Origin: Patescibacteria group bacterium
GTDB taxonomy: Bacteria; Patescibacteriota; Minisyncoccia; Phycocordibacterales; Phycocordibacteraceae
Direction of reading: 5' to 3'
DNA: 64,000 nt
Assembly (NCBI GenBank): GCA_040388985.1
Contig: JAZKAU010000002.1
Location: forward strand, 420,114 to 484,113
Shown: piece after piece, positions 25,297 to 62,537 of the stretch
Layout of the letters: each line of letters starts with the position of its first letter
Numbering within the stretch: the stretch's first letter is position 1
Position numbers and translations under genes: made by a program
The notes under the pieces: model-generated
Database searches by the model: none
Seen by the model: only the letters and a program-made list of their open reading frames with translations
Told to the model about the DNA's origin: nothing

Positions 25297-25686
25297 TTAT
25301 GATTGCTTCTCGAAATCGAGACAGACGGAGTTAATGCAATATCGCTTGCCGCCCTTGTCAGCAGGTCCGTCATCGAAGACGTGACCCAGGTGGCTGCCGC
25401 AGTTCTTGCAGAAGACTTCGGTGCGCCGCATGCCGTGCGTGTCGTCGCTGCGAAGACCTACGTTCTCTGCGACGGCTGGGTCCGTGAACGACGGCCAGCC
25501 GCTTTTCGAGTCGAATTTCGCATCAGAGCTGAAGAGGGCAGTGCCGCAGACCTTGCAATGATACATACCGTCCTCGTGATTATTCACGTATTCTCCTTTG
25601 AAAGGCGCTTCCGTGCCGCCTTCGCGTAGCACCTGATATTCTTCGGGCGTAAGCCGTTTCTTGAGTTCTTCCTCGTTCATTTCCAT
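25297..25686 (-). CDS. msrB: Peptide-methionine (R)-S-oxide reductase MsrB
   Basis: 'YHCKVCGTALF', 'GWPSF', 'CKNCGSHLGHVFDDGP' are the zinc and catalytic motifs. Confidence 0.9.
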   Translation of the reverse strand: MEMNEEELKKRLTPEEYQVLREGGTEAPFKGEYVNNHEDGMYHCKVCGTALFSSDAKFDSKSGWPSFTDPAVAENVGLRSDDTHGMRRTEVFCKNCGSHLGHVFDDGPADKGGKRYCINSVCLDFEKQS

Positions 25687-29606: not shown

Positions 29607-29852
29607 ATGAAAAAGCTTACGCGCAGCAGGGATAATCGGGTGATCTGGGGCGTGCTCGGGGGAGTCGGCGAATACTTCAATATCGACCCCGTTATATGCC
29701 GTCTCATCTTCATACTCCTCACGCTTCCAAGCGGGCTCGTTCCAGGCATCCTTATCTACATCGTGGCGACCATCATCATTCCTGAAGAGCCGCTCGCCGT
29801 ACCCAACAACAAACCTGCATCGGGTACGACCACTAACGATGAGGCTGTGTAA
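29607..29852 (+). CDS. PspC-domain protein
   Basis: 'RSRDNRVIWGVLGGVGEYFNIDPVICRLIFILL' is the PspC signature. Confidence 0.7.
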   Translation: MKKLTRSRDNRVIWGVLGGVGEYFNIDPVICRLIFILLTLPSGLVPGILIYIVATIIIPEEPLAVPNNKPASGTTTNDEAV

Positions 29853-29963: not shown

Positions 29964-30773
29964 ATGACGATACAGCAGTTTAGGACAATAGTCTGGAAAC
30001 ACTATAAAGCCCACGGCAGGCACAGCCTGCCGTGGCGTGCTACGACTGATCCGTATCGTATACTCCTCTCGGAAGTGATGCTCCAGCAGACGCAGGTGGA
30101 ACGAGTCATCCCGTACTATCGCTCCTGGATGAAGGTGTATCCGACGCCGAGACGACTCGCCGGCGCATCGCTCGCTGATGTCCTTACGCATTGGCAAGGA
30201 CTCGGCTATAACCGCCGCGCGAAGATGCTGCATGAGGCGGCGAAGGCAATCGTGCGCGACTACGACGGAAAGATGCCAAAGTCGGTCGAGGAGCTAGAGT
30301 CCCTTCCCGGCATAGGACCGTACACGGCGCGCGCCGTAGCAGCCTTCGCCCATAATCAGGACGTTATTTTCATAGAGACGAATATCCGCACGGCTATCAT
30401 CCATCACTTCTTCAGAGCGCGAAAGATAGTCGACGATACGGAAATACAGAAAATTCTCGAGAAGGCCTTCCCGAAGGGAAAATCGCGGGAATGGTATGCC
30501 GCTCTCATGGACTACGGCGCCTCTCTCAAGCGCTCGGGCATTCGTCTGAACGATAAGAGCAAAGGACATATGAGGCAGTCAGCCTTCAAGGGCTCAGGCA
30601 GGGAGGTCCGGGGCGCGATACTGCGGGAACTCGCGCGAGGCTCTGCCTCGCGCGCAAAGCTCCTTTCGATACTTGGGCCCGCGCGCAAAGAACAAGCCAC
30701 CGAACAGTTGGAGAAGCTGCACCGTGAAGGCATGATCTGCAAAGAGGGACGTTCATATTCTCTACCTGCCTGA
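29964..30773 (+). CDS. HhH-GPD DNA glycosylase (MutY/EndoIII-like, no Cys cluster)
   Basis: 'SEVMLQQTQVERVIPYY', HhH 'LESLPGIGPYTARAVAAFA'. Short (269 aa), with no NUDIX-like C-terminal domain and no FeS Cys. Confidence 0.7.
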   Translation: MTIQQFRTIVWKHYKAHGRHSLPWRATTDPYRILLSEVMLQQTQVERVIPYYRSWMKVYPTPRRLAGASLADVLTHWQGLGYNRRAKMLHEAAKAIVRDYDGKMPKSVEELESLPGIGPYTARAVAAFAHNQDVIFIETNIRTAIIHHFFRARKIVDDTEIQKILEKAFPKGKSREWYAALMDYGASLKRSGIRLNDKSKGHMRQSAFKGSGREVRGAILRELARGSASRAKLLSILGPARKEQATEQLEKLHREGMICKEGRSYSLPA

Positions 30774-30795
30774 TTTGCTACACTGTCTGCCTATG

Positions 30796-30932
30796 CCCGG
30801 TATGACAACTTCGGATATATTTCTTTCTGCGCGACTCGATGCTGATAGTAATTTCTTCATTGCTACACTAACGGGCGATTTAGCAACTGGACCGCGAGAA
30901 ATCAAGCGCGATCCGAAGTTGTCATAACCGGG
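30796..30932. repeat. 137-bp element bounded by 21-bp inverted repeats, ending 1 nt before the alkB ATG
   Basis: cccggtatgacaacttcggat ... atccgaagttgtcataaccggg. Termini resemble those of the 42978-43100 element. Confidence 0.8.
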
Positions 30933-30933
30933 T

Positions 30934-31521
30934 ATGCGCGGACGTGGAGCGGATCAGTACCCTTTATTCGATTTCGGACAGGCATATCCTAACGGCTTCA
31001 CGTATCACTCGGAATTCATAACGGCTTCGGAAGAGGCGGCGCTTATCGCTTGCATCCAGAAGCTGGAACTTACTCCTGCACCCTTTCGCGAATACACCGC
31101 CAAGCGGCGCATCATGAGTTTCGGCTGGACCTATGATCCGGATACGCTCGTTCCGGTGCCCGGAGAGTCGCTTCCGGACTTTTTGCTGCCGCTCGCACAT
31201 AAGGTAGGGAATCTTGTGGGTATTGCGGGCGAACGCGTCGTCGAAGCGCTTATTACCGAATACCGCCCCGGTACCGGCGTCGGCTGGCACCGGGATAACG
31301 AATCGTTCGATAAGATCATCGGCATCTCGCTTGCCGGCTGGTGCAGATTCGACATGCGTCCATGGAGTGCGCGCGATGACACGGAAATGATATCAGTCAC
31401 GGTCGAACCGCGCTCAGCCTATGTCATGCAGGACGAGAGCCGCTGGGACTACAAGCACCGCGTCGCACCTACCAAGGGTCTGCGATATTCCATAACCTTC
31501 CGCACCCTCGCATCTCGATAA
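30934..31521 (+). CDS. alkB: AlkB-family Fe(II)/2OG dioxygenase (alkylated DNA repair)
   Basis: 'GWHRDNE' (HxD) and 'DYKHRV' (H) iron ligands. 'RYSITFR' 2OG-binding Arg. Confidence 0.8.
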   Translation: MRGRGADQYPLFDFGQAYPNGFTYHSEFITASEEAALIACIQKLELTPAPFREYTAKRRIMSFGWTYDPDTLVPVPGESLPDFLLPLAHKVGNLVGIAGERVVEALITEYRPGTGVGWHRDNESFDKIIGISLAGWCRFDMRPWSARDDTEMISVTVEPRSAYVMQDESRWDYKHRVAPTKGLRYSITFRTLASR

Positions 31522-31554: not shown

Positions 31555-31711
31555 ATATCTATCTATACACTCCCGACGAAGGAAAGAATCCTAGCGTAAA
31601 ATTCCCTAAGACGAGGCGCGGGAAAGCAATTTTTGAAAACGTACTGATCGTACGGTGGAAAAAATTGTAGGGGCCCGCAACGAAGTATTAGGGGATTTTA
31701 CGCGGATTCGT

Positions 31712-41615: not shown

Positions 41616-41657
41616 CAGATGTCAAAGAAGGCGCGAGAGCGCCTGATTTGCTACAGC

Positions 41658-41788
41658 TGCGAGAGGCGGAGAGATTCGAAAGCCGGAGGCGCGAAGCCGA
41701 ATCAAGTCTTCGAGATTCGTTGCCGAGGCGTGGTCAAGCGCACTTAGCGAGTCTTCGAGCTTAGTGACGAGTGACCGAATCTCTCCGC
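41658..41788. repeat. Inverted plus direct partial copies of the tRNA-Ser 3' end downstream of the tRNA
   Basis: 'gagaggcggagagattcgaa' (the reverse complement of the tRNA 3' end) at 41658-41679, and 'gaatctctccgcc' (direct copy) at 41776-41788. Confidence 0.6.
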
Positions 41789-41895
41789 CGCTAAACAGCA
41801 GGTGAGCTTTGCAACTATGTTTTAGCAGGATGCCGAGTAATCTCGGCGCCGCTAAGACTTTAGATTCCATGCCAAATTGTAGGGTAGTATTGAAT

Positions 41896-42633
41896 ATGCC
41901 CATGGACAGACAGCCGACCATCTCCGTCATCATCATCGCCCATAACGAGGAGGAGCATATCGGCGCATGCATAGAGCATATCTTGCATCAGACCAAGAAG
42001 GCTGATGAGATAGTAGTCATCGTGCATAACAGCACGGACAGAACGCGGGAGATCGCAGAGTCATATCCGGTCACGGTCGTGTCGTACGAAGGACCGGTAG
42101 GTATCACCTATGCGCGCCTCAAAGGCCTACAGTCCGTTTCCGGGGATATCATCCTATGCACTGACGGTGATTCTCGCGCGAAAGTCGATTGGGTAGAGAC
42201 TCTCGCACGTCTTCTTGGGGCTCGCGATAATAGGCTGGTCGGGTCATACGTACGCCTCGAAGGGAACTTGTTCGTACGGTTGTTCAGCATCGTGCATAAG
42301 TACTCGTGCGCCCGGAAGGACGCCGCAGCCGCTTCGTGGGTGTGGGGCGCGAGCATGGGATTCTGGGGGAAAGATATCGGGCGAGTACGACCGATCTTCG
42401 AACAGGGCAGTTCCCTGTCGAAAGAAATCGGACTATCGCGTAATCCTGAAGATTACTGGCTCGCCCTATTCATGAGTCGGGCAGGAAATATCGAAGTGAC
42501 GAATCACACCTACGTCGCAGTCCGAGCGAAAGAGACGTCATTCTGGCACGGACTCAAGCGAAATCGTGAAAATATCGGTAACGGGGAGCGGATGCTCAAA
42601 TATTTCAAAGAGCATCCCGAGCTTACGTCTTAG
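41896..42633 (+). CDS. Family 2 glycosyltransferase
   Basis: 'ISVIIIAHNEEEHI' and the 'TDGDS' DxD motif. Confidence 0.75.
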   Translation: MPMDRQPTISVIIIAHNEEEHIGACIEHILHQTKKADEIVVIVHNSTDRTREIAESYPVTVVSYEGPVGITYARLKGLQSVSGDIILCTDGDSRAKVDWVETLARLLGARDNRLVGSYVRLEGNLFVRLFSIVHKYSCARKDAAAASWVWGASMGFWGKDIGRVRPIFEQGSSLSKEIGLSRNPEDYWLALFMSRAGNIEVTNHTYVAVRAKETSFWHGLKRNRENIGNGERMLKYFKEHPELTS

Positions 42634-42937
42634 GAATCCACTGGGACTCCTTGAGATCGACTTTCTCACCGCGGAAGATGACTCCTTCCTTCCGAAGCAT
42701 CAGACCCTTAGTCTTGGTACCGTCACCGTAAGCATAGCCCGCAAGGGCTCCAGTAGAACCCACGACCCGGTGGCACGGTACCGCCTCAGTATCCTTATTC
42801 GTGCTCATACAGGTACCCACCGCACGCGCGGCTCCCGGCCTTCCCGCGAGTGCTGCGACTTGGCCGTAGGTTGCGACCTTGCCTTTGGGAATGCTCGCGA
42901 CAACCGCATATACCGTCTGTTTGAAATTGCTTTTCAT
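42623..42937 (-). CDS. ogt: Methylated-DNA--protein-cysteine methyltransferase (Ogt/MGMT, DNA-binding domain only)
   Basis: 'PCHRVVGSTG' active site. 'YGQVAALAGRPGAARAVG' HTH. Confidence 0.85.
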   Translation of the reverse strand: MKSNFKQTVYAVVASIPKGKVATYGQVAALAGRPGAARAVGTCMSTNKDTEAVPCHRVVGSTGALAGYAYGDGTKTKGLMLRKEGVIFRGEKVDLKESQWIPKT

Positions 42938-42977
42938 ATGAAGGCAGTATAGCGCAGACTGAACGATCGCAGCTAGG

Positions 42978-43100
42978 TAGTATACCCCGTATGACAGCTA
43001 GGACTGAAGATAACGAATGCCAGACGTGCAGGTTCACGTGCCCAAGTCTTTCATTTCAGGAATGCCTCTATACGTTGAGGCTGTCATACGGGGTATACTG
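42978..43100. repeat. ~120-bp element bounded by a 20-bp perfect inverted repeat, in the ogt/DUF192 divergent promoter region
   Basis: gtagtataccccgtatgacagc ... gctgtcatacggggtatact. The right arm carries a TATACT -10 six nt before the DUF192 ATG. Confidence 0.8.
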
Positions 43101-43105
43101 AGCAT

Positions 43106-43630
43106 ATGAACCTTAAGAGACATTATGTCCTTTATGGGCTGCTCGCGCTTATCCTCATCGTCGGACTACTACTCCTTCTGTTCCCAAGGCCCGAATTCAT
43201 GTCCTTTACGGCACCCGCGCCTACTAGCGGCGTAGCTACCAGCAGCCCCGGATTACTTCCGGCTACAAATACTCAATCGCTTCAGCCAGCCATGCATTTC
43301 GAGGTAGTGACGAGTACTTCTTCCCAAGCCCTGGGTCTTGGTGGCCGCGCTGATGTGCCCCAGGACTACGGCATGCTCTTCGTCTTCGCAAAACCTGACC
43401 GCTACGGATTCTGGATGAAGGATATGCTGGTACCTATCGATATGATCTGGCTTTCGGACACCGGAACGATACTTTCCATCGACAGCTCGGTAGCACCAAG
43501 CACCTACCCGAAGTCATTCTACCCGCCCGTGCCGGTGCGCTATGTCCTTGAGACCAGGGCAGGCGAGGCAGCTCGCCGCGGATGGAGGGTGGGCACCTAC
43601 GTTGATCTCCCCATCCCATACGGGAAGTAA
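43106..43630 (+). CDS. DUF192 domain protein (secreted/anchored)
   Basis: N-terminal TM. 'DYGMLFVF...YGFWMKDMLVPIDMIWL' is the DUF192 core. Confidence 0.7.
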   Translation: MNLKRHYVLYGLLALILIVGLLLLLFPRPEFMSFTAPAPTSGVATSSPGLLPATNTQSLQPAMHFEVVTSTSSQALGLGGRADVPQDYGMLFVFAKPDRYGFWMKDMLVPIDMIWLSDTGTILSIDSSVAPSTYPKSFYPPVPVRYVLETRAGEAARRGWRVGTYVDLPIPYGK

Positions 43631-48537: not shown

Positions 48538-49374
48538 ATGGGAAGATCCAAAGTCCTTATACCTGAGGACGACTTGAAGCGACTGTATATTAGTGAGCAT
48601 TGGTCACCCGCAAAAATTGGTGATACATATGGTTGCAATTCCATCACTGTACGTTCCCGCCTGATTGAAGCCGGAATCCCATTGAAGACAAAAAGCGCCG
48701 CCCATACGCGGTATCCTAAAAGCGATTTCAATGGATCAGATATTGAAAAAGCATATATGCTGGGTTTTCGATACGGAGATTTGAACGTCTACTTGCCTCG
48801 AGGAAAATCAGAAACCATAGTCGTGCGTTCGCATTCGACGCTTGCCGTGCAAGGAAATTTGTTCAAGAGACTTTTTGAGTCCTACGGAACGATTACTGTT
48901 TCTAAGAATGTAAGAAGTACTCAAATGACTACATATCTGAATATGAGCTTCAGCTTTCTTCTCGGTAAGTATCCGACTGAAATGCGAGAATGGCTTGCCT
49001 CGTCCAATGAAAGACTTTGGTCATTTGCAGCGGGGTACATAGATGCGGAAGGAACATTCGGACTAAATCAAGGTAAGGGTAGGTTCAAGATAGACGCATA
49101 CGATTACGAAATTCTATTCGACATACATTCTCTTTTTCTTCACTCAGGCATCAATAGCAAATTTCGCGTCATTGCTCGAAAAGGAGAGAATGATTATGGT
49201 TGGATATGGAAACATGACCTTTGGAGGATCTCCGTGAATGAAGCGAAATCAATCGAAACGCTGATACACAAAAGCAAACCTTACATGCTTCACGAAAAGC
49301 GCATTACTGACGCAAATATGGTATTACAGAATATAGCTGAACGCAGAGTACATGGAACCATTGCATATCACTAG
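48538..49374 (+). mobile_element. Free-standing LAGLIDADG homing endonuclease gene (two motifs, N-terminal HTH-like region); GC ~45% versus ~60% for the flanks
   Basis: 'YMLGFRYGDLNVY' and 'AAGYIDAEGTFGL' LAGLIDADG motifs. Sharp GC drop across 48490-49380. The 3' end overlaps the lepA start by 23 nt. Confidence 0.75.
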
Positions 49375-51337: not shown

Positions 51338-51697
51338 ATGGCACGGCACCCAGCACCACGGAATCGTATGAAGGAATTGGTAACGGCAGTGATACTGTCG
51401 TTCGCCATCGTCTGGCTGGTCTTCCTGGTCGTAAGCATCTTTCGGAAGGAGGAGATAGCGCGTAAGACGGTAGCCGGGACGAAGGTCGAGCTTGCGGCAC
51501 TCGATACGCGTAAGAACGACCTCTCGAAGACCGTAAGCGACATGGATACCGAGCGCGGTCAGGAGGCATCACTGCGCGAGACGTTCGGGGTTGCGCGGCC
51601 GGGCGAGGACGTTATCATCGTAGTGCCGAAGACCGAGACAGCGCCTCCGCCGCAGCTCACGCTTTGGCAGCGGATCAAAGGCTTCTTCGGGCTCTAG
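51338..51697 (+). CDS. Septum formation initiator family protein (FtsB/DivIC-like)
   Basis: TM followed by a coiled-coil ('ELAALDTRKNDLSKTVSDMDTERGQEASLRE'). Confidence 0.55.
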   Translation: MARHPAPRNRMKELVTAVILSFAIVWLVFLVVSIFRKEEIARKTVAGTKVELAALDTRKNDLSKTVSDMDTERGQEASLRETFGVARPGEDVIIVVPKTETAPPPQLTLWQRIKGFFGL

Positions 51698-51821
51698 AGT
51701 GCGTCTAGAATCTCCATCTGCTGCGTTACGGGTCCCTGCTCGTTTCTCCGCCGTACGCCCTAGTACGTCTACGAAACTCGCTGTCCCGCGCCTTGCATAT
51801 GAAAATTCTAGACGCACTCTT
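51695..51821 (+). repeat. Intergenic repeat family 1, copy F (flanked by a 16-bp perfect inverted repeat)
   Basis: tagagtgcgtctagaat-[ctccatctgctgcgtt...ccgccgtacgccctagtacgtc...cgcgccttgcatatg]-aaaattctagacgcactct. Confidence 0.85.
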
Positions 51822-51902: not shown

Positions 51903-51954
51903 CAAAATAAGGAAAAGGATATGTAAATATCCGATGACTATATTTTGTGACGTA

Positions 51955-52082
51955 GGTACGGGGAATCGAACGGCGGAGCCGGTATACAAGACGAGTCCTC
52001 GAGTGCTTGTCGGCGAGCCGCGGCCAGCGTTCTTAGGAGCGCAGCGAGTTAGAAAAAGCGGGCCGATTCCCCGTACCCGCAC
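51955..52082. repeat. Chimeric repeat: inverted tRNA-Gly 3'-end copy, a ~60-bp core that recurs at 62427-62487, and a direct tRNA-Gly 3'-end copy
   Basis: 'gtacggggaatcgaac' is the reverse complement of the tRNA-Gly 3' end. The core 'ggcggagccggtatacaagacgagtcctcgagtgcttgtcggcgagccg' is identical to the reverse complement of 62427-62474. 'gattccccgtacccgcaca' is repeated at 52065-52083. Confidence 0.8.
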
Positions 52083-52125: not shown

Positions 52126-52782
52126 TTAATCCGAGAGATATCTCACTACGGAACTGCAATAGTCCTCGAACGAATCTCCGTTTGGAGAGAAGAATCCGTA
52201 TCCGTGTTCTTTAGCGATGCGCTCGACTCTCTTATTCTTTATGACCTCGTCCGCAAACCATTTTCGAACGGCAGAGTCGTCACCGCCGTCTTCCTCAACT
52301 ATCTTCTTGTAGACCCAGTCTTTCTTCGCATGCGCATATCCAAGGATCGTATTCAAATATGAATCATCCGTAAAGCCTACAAAGACAGCCTTTAATACTA
52401 GATGCTTGAGCGACAAGCTGTTTACGAGTTCGGGCGTTATGGCCATCCCTTCAATAGCTAAAGATGCAGTTCCCGCCTTTCGATCGTAATAATTGATTAA
52501 TCCTACGATTGTCTTCCAGGTCAGGTCCTCTTGCGTTATTTCCTGCCGAAAATGTTTCGTGTGAGATTCGTCCTTACTTTCTCCCGAACGATGGAACGAC
52601 ACATCGCCTTCGAAAGATAGGTGATTAACGTTTATGAAAGATTCGTCTGTGAGCGTGTATCTCGCAGCCTCTCGCAAAGCATCCGAGGAAATAGCGGTCA
52701 TGGGGTTTTGCCGTATCAGTTCATTGAAAATAATAGTCTTTCCTGAGCGAGGAGACCCGCCGATGAGGTATAGAGTAGTCAT
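52126..52782 (-). CDS. P-loop NTPase/kinase-like protein (Walker A 'GGSPRSGKT'), low-GC
   Basis: Walker A at residues 8-16, about 218 aa. AT-rich relative to the genome. Confidence 0.6.
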   Translation of the reverse strand: MTTLYLIGGSPRSGKTIIFNELIRQNPMTAISSDALREAARYTLTDESFINVNHLSFEGDVSFHRSGESKDESHTKHFRQEITQEDLTWKTIVGLINYYDRKAGTASLAIEGMAITPELVNSLSLKHLVLKAVFVGFTDDSYLNTILGYAHAKKDWVYKKIVEEDGGDDSAVRKWFADEVIKNKRVERIAKEHGYGFFSPNGDSFEDYCSSVVRYLSD

Positions 52783-52849: not shown

Positions 52850-53410
52850 ATGGAACATCGCGAAGTCGAGGTGCGCTTCCTTGAGATAGATAAAGAGCAG
52901 CTAATCGCAAAGCTGCGAGATCTGGGCGCCAAAGATTTGGGTGAGGATATGCTAGAAGAGGTGATTCTCTACGACAAGCCAATGACTTGGCAGGAGAAGG
53001 GTGGGAAAGTGCTCCGTCTGCGCACACGGCAAGGGAAGACGGTGTTGACCTATAAGCATCATGAGAAAGCATCAGTAGGAGGGACTGAGGAGATAGAATT
53101 CGAGGTCAGTGATCCTCACAAAGCCGAAGTTTTGTTAGACCGGCTCGGATATGAAGTATATAGACATCAACAGAAGAAACGACACACATTCGAGCTGGGA
53201 AGCGTAGTCGTCGATATTGATACCTGGCCCAAGATACCTACCTACGTGGAACTCGAAGGCGTCGATGAAGAGTCACTGAAAGCGACAGCTATGGCTCTCG
53301 ATCTTGACTGGAAAGACGTCGAATTGCGAAACCCACGGCTGGTGTTGGAAGAGAAGTACGGAATCCCGATCGCGACCATGCGCTGGTTTACGTTTGATGG
53401 GTTCGAGTAG
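52850..53410 (+). CDS. CYTH-domain protein (triphosphate tunnel metalloenzyme / CyaB-like)
   Basis: N-terminal 'EVEVRFLEI' (ExExK-type start) and conserved acidic and Lys/Arg tunnel residues through the length. Confidence 0.6.
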   Translation: MEHREVEVRFLEIDKEQLIAKLRDLGAKDLGEDMLEEVILYDKPMTWQEKGGKVLRLRTRQGKTVLTYKHHEKASVGGTEEIEFEVSDPHKAEVLLDRLGYEVYRHQQKKRHTFELGSVVVDIDTWPKIPTYVELEGVDEESLKATAMALDLDWKDVELRNPRLVLEEKYGIPIATMRWFTFDGFE

Positions 53411-62330: not shown

Positions 62331-62412
62331 AGGTTTACTGTATCGGTTTCAAAGTATAGTGGAAAGAGGACGGGATTCAGCCGCAGTCACTAACTCGCTA
62401 CGCTCCTAAGTG

Positions 62413-62495
62413 CTGCCGGCCCCGGCTCGCCGACAAGCACTCGAGGACTCGTCTTGTATACCGGCTCCGCCGTTCGAATCCCTCACCGCTGGTAA
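62413..62495. repeat. Second copy of the chimeric tRNA-end repeat (reverse orientation), fused to a tRNA-Val 3'-end fragment
   Basis: The reverse complement of 62427-62474 is identical to 51976-52023. 'gttcgaatccctcaccgc' (62475-62492) is an inverted copy of the tRNA-Val 3' end at 62541-62558. Confidence 0.8.
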
Positions 62496-62537
62496 AACAA
62501 TACTCGAAAACGGTTCCCGTTTTCTCGTTTGTTTTTG

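Follow-up and report, generated by a model that had tools for sequence, protein, structure and literature searches.

Two small inverted-repeat elements at alkB and DUF192 of a patescibacterium, best explained as MITE-like insertions

Inverted-repeat elements before alkB and between ogt and DUF192

The window, that is, the whole 64-kb stretch of DNA that we analyzed from an uncultured patescibacterium, carries two short elements bounded by inverted repeats, one directly before an alkB gene and the other in the divergent spacer between an ogt-like gene and a DUF192 gene (Table 1). Such paired inverted repeats had been reported at these two places in the first-pass annotation, and both were recovered there. 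The gene identities given with them also hold, by Pfam, by the AlkB invariant residues and by the PCHRV motif. In particular, the AlkB ORF matches the 2OG-Fe(II) oxygenase family in Pfam and, in an alignment, retains all family-invariant AlkB residues.

Table 1. Coordinates of the genes, promoters and element parts at the two loci (window positions)
Feature	Position	Strand	Remarks
HhH-GPD glycosylase gene	29964-30773		Pfam
Native alkB extended -10 promoter, TTGCTACACT	30775-30784	+	-10 is TACACT, 30779-30784
Target duplication TATG, left copy	30792-30795	+	holds old start codon position, ATG 30793-30795
Read-through ORF, 44 codons	30793-30927	+	runs from duplicated old start codon across alkB element
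alkB element	30796-30932		137 bp
alkB element, left terminal inverted repeat, CCCGGTATGACAACTTCGGAT	30796-30816	+
alkB element, interior	30817-30910	+	non-coding in its own right
Second TTGCTACACT, inside alkB element	30860-30869		points to alkB; possible internal promoter
alkB element, right terminal inverted repeat, ATCCGAAGTTGTCATAACCGGG	30911-30932	+	one extra A relative to left arm
Target duplication TATG, right copy	30933-30936	+	ATG 30934-30936 is the present alkB start codon
alkB	30934-31521	+	195 aa, 2OG-Fe(II) oxygenase, intact
ogt-like gene	42623-42937	-	single-domain MGMT, 104 aa, PCHRV active site
ogt own -10 box, TATACT on minus strand	42946-42951	-	8 nt from ogt ATG, outside element
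Target duplication TATA, left copy	42981-42984	+	palindromic
ogt/DUF192 element	42985-43093		109 bp
ogt/DUF192 element, left terminal inverted repeat, CCCCGTATGACAGC	42985-42998	+
ogt/DUF192 element, interior	42999-43079	+	unlike alkB element interior
ogt/DUF192 element, right terminal inverted repeat, GCTGTCATACGGGG	43080-43093	+
DUF192 -10 box, TATACT	43094-43099	+	ends 6 nt before ATG at 43106
DUF192 gene	43106-43630	+	Pfam; its promoter took the insertion

At alkB, the insertion now separates the native extended -10 promoter from the alkB ATG, and the two TATG copies that flank it form a direct repeat, not a palindrome. The sole ORF in either element is the 44-codon read-through from the old alkB start, which stops at a TAA 6 nt ahead of the present alkB ATG. 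The element interior also holds a second TTGCTACACT. Because a 10-mer match to the flank within 200 bp has a chance probability of ~0.1, we kept this match as a weak candidate promoter and, for the same reason, dropped it as proof of promoter capture.

At the second locus, a perfect 20-nt inverted repeat (42979-42998 and 43080-43099) encloses 81 nt between its arms. The first four bases of the DUF192 TATACT box are the right target copy (43094-43097), and its last two belong to the original flank. Given that TATA is palindromic, its left copy could by itself be either half of a direct repeat or a continuation of the inverted repeat, so that an unambiguous target duplication is seen at alkB only. 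The element sits 29 bp beyond the ogt -10 box and interrupts the -10 box of DUF192. The earlier statement that both alkylation genes carry the same upstream signature is thus correct for alkB and not for ogt, since the second element lies in the DUF192 -10 box.

What the two elements share is limited to their 14-nt ends, CCCSGTATGACARC, in inverted orientation. All four ends carry this block, one of the arms with a single indel. The relatedness of the arm cores, already pointed out in the first-pass annotation, proved larger than claimed, with the arms of both elements agreeing at 12/14 positions over CCCSGTATGACARC and one copy having a terminal repeat as long as 21 nt. The inner edge of the TATR flanking repeat is, in either copy, exactly where the shared block begins, and each insertion falls at the -10 box or the start of a leaderless gene. 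A 17-mer version of the arm, searched across the 64-kb window with up to 3 mismatches, gave 3 matches against 0.31 expected, a count reached in 0/100 shuffles, and it matched nothing in the 64 kb other than these arms; the 11-mer arm core, with 1 mismatch allowed, gave 4 matches against 1.37 expected. The interiors, which had been described as different, are unrelated by alignment, showing no similarity in either orientation and a local alignment score below the shuffle mean. With only two copies known and nothing shared between their interiors, the family rests on these 14 nt and on the flanking repeats. Single-strand folding was stronger than in shuffled sequences for both regions (z = -6.6 and -6.4), with predicted stems of -58 and -56 kcal/mol.

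Promoter habit of the host and empty sites in relatives

Using a crude gene map of the window, we found a TANNNT motif 4-10 nt before the start codon in 18/64 genes, against a background of 6.3%, and a Shine-Dalgarno-like motif in only 4/64. The TATACT-type boxes are frequently preceded by TGn or TTGn. Judged from these motifs, many mRNAs in this organism are leaderless and are predicted to be made from extended -10 promoters, examples being the genes at 25297-25686(-), 29607-29852, 51338-51697, 52126-52782(-) and 52850-53410. A scan for the sigma-70 -35/-10 consensus found nothing, because promoters here are of the extended -10/leaderless type. The window thus documents a Patescibacteria lineage that relies largely on leaderless TGnTAtACT-type promoters placed 6-10 nt before the ATG.

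We then excised both elements in silico, removing each element together with one copy of its repeat. The excised alkB front reads TGATTTGCTACACTGTCTGCCTATGCGC, that is, the extended -10 box TTGCTACACT, 8 nt and the ATG, and the excised DUF192 front reads GGTAGTATACTGAGCATATG, that is, TATACT, 6 nt and the ATG. Given that the host uses leaderless promoters, both excised sites display the normal architecture of this genome.

Orthologous loci were available for comparison on both sides. A metagenome scan with an AlkB alignment yielded 80 alkB loci, of which the closest (L008) encodes a protein of 62% identity; the nearest AlkB homologues, at 60-68% protein identity, belong to Paceibacterota/Parcubacteria. 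In L008 and in L099, a Paceibacterota MAG that keeps the window gene order around alkB across a 20-kb locus, ATTTGCTACAAT followed by N8 and the ATG stands directly before alkB. The excised window sequence GATTTGCTACACTGTCTGCCTATG is identical to GATTTGCTACAATACCCGCCTATG of L008 at 19/24 bases and resembles the end of the L099 spacer, AATTTGCTACAATGCCTGACTATG, and the empty alkB sites of the relatives end in ...CCTATG or ...ACTATG. In agreement with this, the nth-alkB spacer measures 160 bp in the window, against 44 bp in L099 and 31 bp in the P0002 contig. The ogt/DUF192 divergent spacer measures 168 bp in the window (55 bp once excised), against 34, 52, 41 and 42 bp in relatives, three of which have conserved gene order (L092, L093 and L094) while the fourth (L089) is on a short contig. 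The window and these four relatives (5/5 genomes) all keep an AGTATA(C) box at a distance of 6-8 nt from the start of ogt, and the excised window sequence is similar to the promoter on the DUF192 side of the L093 spacer (GGTAGAATATAC...). Within the 34-42 bp spacers of L089 (422-463), L092 (9967-10000) and L094 (9960-10000), we observed a single palindromic AGTATACT, which, by its sequence, could be the -10 box for both strands.

Since the orthologous sites of the relatives are uninterrupted, this comparison shows both elements to be insertions in this lineage, relative to the ancestral arrangement; at a protein identity of only 60-68%, what the empty sites of the relatives show is that the elements were absent ancestrally, not that they moved recently. 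Both insertions are carried by every assembly of the population, including GCA_040384165.1 and the Logan assembly SRR26324622. As the contigs of these two come from the same population as the window and differ from it by assembly artefacts only, they give no presence/absence information.

We also searched for further copies and for partner genes. The two copies seen in the 64 kb are accompanied in the window by no full-length element with the same ends and by no detected transposase or recombinase gene, and following the edge genes a few kb past the window edges gave no new copy. Save for scattered 2-mismatch matches, the arm motif was absent from ~0.7 Mb of related loci, including the 80 alkB loci, and it was not found in the ogt/DUF192 loci of the four relatives. 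A paired-arm scan of 185,579 species genomes, among which the source genome is not included, returned 5 matches against ~8 expected by chance, none of them related. Three of these (L003, L005 and L007, from Ruminococcus, Clostridiaceae and Clostridium) are one homologous Clostridia-type stretch, whose likeness to the arms is one of pattern only. A fourth (L004), also unrelated, precedes a gene whose N terminus looks by eye like a LacI-type helix-turn-helix. The remaining match (L006, Caenimonas sp. SL110) is a different, unrelated repeat array, picked up only because its repeat contains the searched 14-mer; this tandem array occupies positions 2300-2560 of its locus and is built from a repeat of ~95-120 bp containing GGCTGTCATRCCGGGCTYGACCCGGYATCC. 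Scans of viral contigs gave no paired-arm match and one single-arm match without an inverted partner, a plasmid BLAST with both elements retrieved no homologue, and Rfam 15 gave no covariance-model match up to E = 1 at either locus.

A proposed MITE-like insertion and its alternatives

We consider it likely that the two elements are copies of a small, non-coding, non-autonomous MITE-like transposon, one at alkB and one at DUF192; the data are best explained by a low-copy element whose terminal repeats measure 14-21 bp and whose insertion duplicates a 4-bp TATR target. Both elements are well within the size of MITEs (137 bp and 109 bp, below ~500 bp) and lack a transposase gene of their own, they share terminal inverted repeats, they are flanked by a target duplication of fixed length (of which the TATA copy is palindromic), and their orthologous sites are empty in distant relatives. 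Other spaced inverted-repeat families also occur in the window, and the relatives are without them in the regions sampled. A MITE family had in fact been offered earlier as a second possibility, with the right end of the element bringing the TATACT box to the downstream gene. We retain the MITE and discard the imported box, because TATACT is the pre-existing DUF192 -10 box, rebuilt from the target TATA and the flanking CT.

According to this model, the shared 14-nt ends would be recognized by a transposase supplied in trans, presumably a DDE transposase, which would have mobilized both elements. Each insertion would have taken a TATR tetranucleotide as its target and left it duplicated. One copy would have entered the -10 box (AGTATACT) of the leaderless DUF192 promoter, where the duplication would have rebuilt TATACT at the proper distance from the DUF192 ATG, and the other would have entered the TATG that holds the alkB start codon, rebuilding an ATG for alkB and moving the native promoter 141 bp upstream. 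The nearness to two alkylation-repair genes is best read as a coincidence, which may have been aided by a preference for TAT-rich promoter and start sites and by the tolerance of insertions at non-essential genes, since promoter insertions at dispensable genes would be the likeliest to survive in a reduced genome. Moreover, with the second insertion assigned to DUF192, only 1 of the 2 copies is at an alkylation-repair gene, which is unremarkable in a window that encodes DinB (PF00817), two HhH-GPD glycosylases, AlkB and Ogt.

The shared surroundings had originally suggested a common operator for an Ada-like response, in which the arms would be looped paired sites ~100 bp apart that co-induce alkB and ogt. 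Both copies in the 64 kb do adjoin alkylation-repair genes, and within the window the arm core marks these sites specifically, but we regard this explanation as very improbable, given that the motif is absent upstream of the 80 alkB homologues and in the ogt/DUF192 loci of four relatives, and that the elements are insertions, absent from those relatives and flanked by duplications. The placement of the elements argues in the same direction. The second insertion leaves intact the conserved -10 box of ogt along with the adjacent 29 bp on its upstream side, splits the DUF192 -10 box and lies beyond the ogt promoter. At alkB the insertion falls after the -10 box and before the ATG, the wrong place for an activator or repressor site; a regulator would be expected to act from a site at or upstream of the -35 element. 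In addition, no Ada/AraC-type regulator was found encoded in the 64-kb window, neither arm is a palindrome in itself, and operators are not typically spaced 81-108 bp apart around unrelated interiors. The tempting notion of a conserved operator for the alkylation response in a bacterium of the candidate phyla radiation is thus, in all likelihood, a mistaken one. A site-specific recombinase that flips the segment between the arms, switching the adjacent genes, would also account for 14-21 nt inverted repeats bracketing ~100 bp beside gene starts, and the promoter-like TTGCTACACT in the alkB element is aimed at alkB as such a switch would have it. We nevertheless give this inverton little credence: the 4-bp direct repeats and the restored promoters indicate transposition, only one orientation occurs in three independent assemblies of the population, all with uninterrupted contigs, the two alkB arms are set apart by an indel, nothing convincing as a promoter was seen inside the ogt/DUF192 element, and the 64-kb window has no recombinase or invertase gene.

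Two further explanations accept the elements and question what unites or maintains them. They could be two unrelated insertions or palindromes, of no common family, whose ends are alike by chance, as might be argued from there being only two copies, with unrelated interiors and a shared stretch as short as 12/14 nt. We hold this to be unlikely, because an agreement of 12/14 has an estimated probability of ~3e-6 per comparison and of ~0.03 after a generous correction for inverted-repeat pairs and offsets, and because a chance likeness would have to start at the TATR repeat edge in both copies and to recur in the -10/start region of a leaderless gene. Alternatively, whatever the mobile origin of the elements, their selected function could be that of a cis-acting RNA hairpin in processing, stability or translational control. 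The predicted stems are indeed very stable (z ~-6.5), the base of the alkB stem includes the AUG, and RNase III is documented to cut Correia elements at their terminal repeats (PMC10969869). Such a function seems improbable to us, in that no homologues were found among the 80 alkB loci or in Rfam, and the ogt/DUF192 element, lying upstream of both predicted leaderless starts, may not be transcribed at all. Integron attC sites were also considered and rejected: the arms, ...GACAAC/GTTGTC... and ...GACAGC/GCTGTC..., misfit the RYYYAAC ... GTTRRRY core sites, the window has no integrase, and the context is core chromosome.

Within the MITE-like interpretation, the terminal repeats might have been co-opted as sites for a transposase or a domesticated protein, joining alkB and ogt/DUF192 in a regulon distributed by the MITE, a proposal to which we attach a very low probability. 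In a milder version, the element may target the -10 or start-codon TATR of leaderless genes and survive there since the duplication rebuilds the gene-side signal.

As a kind of element, a small non-autonomous transposon is well known and ordinary, and its closest described analogue is the Correia element (CREE) of Neisseria, the first prokaryotic MITE. Correia elements are inserted just upstream of genes, display -10 boxes at their junctions and form RNase III-sensitive hairpins (PMC2649163, PMC10969869). Like the window elements, they measure ~100-150 bp, are non-coding, have terminal inverted repeats and a short A/T-rich target duplication, and are mostly inserted directly 5′ of genes, where a -10 box can arise across the element-target junction. 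They differ in duplicating TA, in carrying promoter parts within conserved 26-bp repeats, and in having a conserved core and >100 copies per genome, whereas the window elements show a 4-bp TATR duplication, a -10 box derived from the target, unrelated interiors and two visible copies, and belong to a Patescibacteria MAG whose promoters are leaderless. No MITE from Patescibacteria is listed in a 2024 review of prokaryotic MITEs (PMC10969869), and a full-text literature search combining MITE terms with Patescibacteria returned nothing on the subject by title or abstract.

As to the source of the transposase, almost all members of the IS701 family duplicate exactly 4 bp of target (PMC2266710). 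This duplication fits the window elements, but the published IS701 end consensus (---YACT-Y--YR-) misfits CCCSGTATGACARC, and no IS701-like transposase was seen in the window. IS1380 elements have ends in CC and duplicate 4-5 bp, and an IS5 subgroup duplicates 4 bp. As a lead only, IS1380 or the IS5 subgroup would be as possible a source as IS701. Ada boxes, in turn, are short sites that occur singly, immediately 5′ of the -35 element, and are bound by Ada in its methylated form. Those before ada-alkB, alkA and aidB in E. coli are like the window sites in lying upstream of alkylation-repair genes; the window sites, in contrast, are the paired ends of an inserted segment, unconserved in relatives and located in or after the -10 box. 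REP/REPIN sequences mobilized by RAYTs are likewise short intergenic hairpin-forming repeats. Their unit is itself a small palindrome, they reach high copy numbers, they have no target duplication, and a RAYT gene is present. We rejected them, as none of these features (palindromic unit, high copy number, missing duplication, RAYT gene) is seen here.

Predicted consequences for expression and other mobile or regulatory features

If the model is correct, the two insertions would have had unequal consequences. DUF192 would keep its -10 box and spacing, the change being limited to sequence upstream of the -10 box, and ogt should be unaffected. alkB, on the other hand, appears to have lost contact with its native promoter. 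Transcription from that promoter would begin at the duplicated ATG (30793), giving an RNA that encodes the 44-codon ORF through the element; the end of this ORF, 6 nt before the alkB ATG, would allow termination-reinitiation and may couple its translation to that of alkB. In the predicted fold of such an RNA, the terminal repeats would pair into a stable hairpin burying both AUGs. As a weak possibility, the internal TTGCTACACT could replace the promoter, with a leader of ~57 nt. Since the invariant residues of AlkB are all kept, either the insertion is recent or expression persists. alkB is thus a clean natural example of a leaderless gene parted from its promoter, for which the possible outcomes are a new 5′ hairpin, a read-through small ORF or a loss of expression, and the two loci together document small mobile elements landing exactly in leaderless promoters.

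Several other repeats were noted in the window. One family is linked to tRNA genes, with copies at 51904-52082 (after tRNA-Gly), 41617-41792 (after tRNA-Ser) and 62370-62536 (after tRNA-Val, on the minus strand). Each copy opens with an inverted copy of the 3′ end of its own tRNA (51955-51971, 41663-41680 and 62472-62490, respectively), followed by a common body of ~85 nt, GGCGGAGCCGGTATACAAGACGAGTCCTCGAGTGCTTGTCGGCGAGCC...TTAGGAGCG.AGCGAGTTAG, and the Gly and Ser copies close with a direct copy of the tRNA 3′ end (52062-52082 and 41776-41792). The bodies of the Gly and Val copies are alike at almost all aligned positions, and that of the Ser copy is much more diverged. With tRNA-specific ends and a shared body, this family resembles either a miniature integrative element whose att site was duplicated or an element for which tRNA 3′ ends served as template. 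A second family of spaced inverted repeats is present at 31594-31703, between the convergent alkB and RNase J genes, and in opposite orientation at 51696-51820, just upstream of tRNA-Gly; it has a central CGTAC...GTACG palindrome, and its copy at 31594-31703 has no match in Rfam. A free-standing ORF with a LAGLIDADG domain (48538-49374) lies between murJ and lepA, two genes that are adjacent and overlapping in the relative L093, and by this comparison it looks like another lineage-specific mobile insertion.

Finally, among the alkB loci collected in the metagenome scan, four higher-GC loci without the leaderless layout (L059, L075, L085 and L087) display LexA-type CTGT-N8-ACAG-like boxes (e.g., ACTGTATATATTTACAG) right before the alkB start codon. 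This sequence pattern suggests that the AlkB clade of these organisms is under SOS rather than Ada control.
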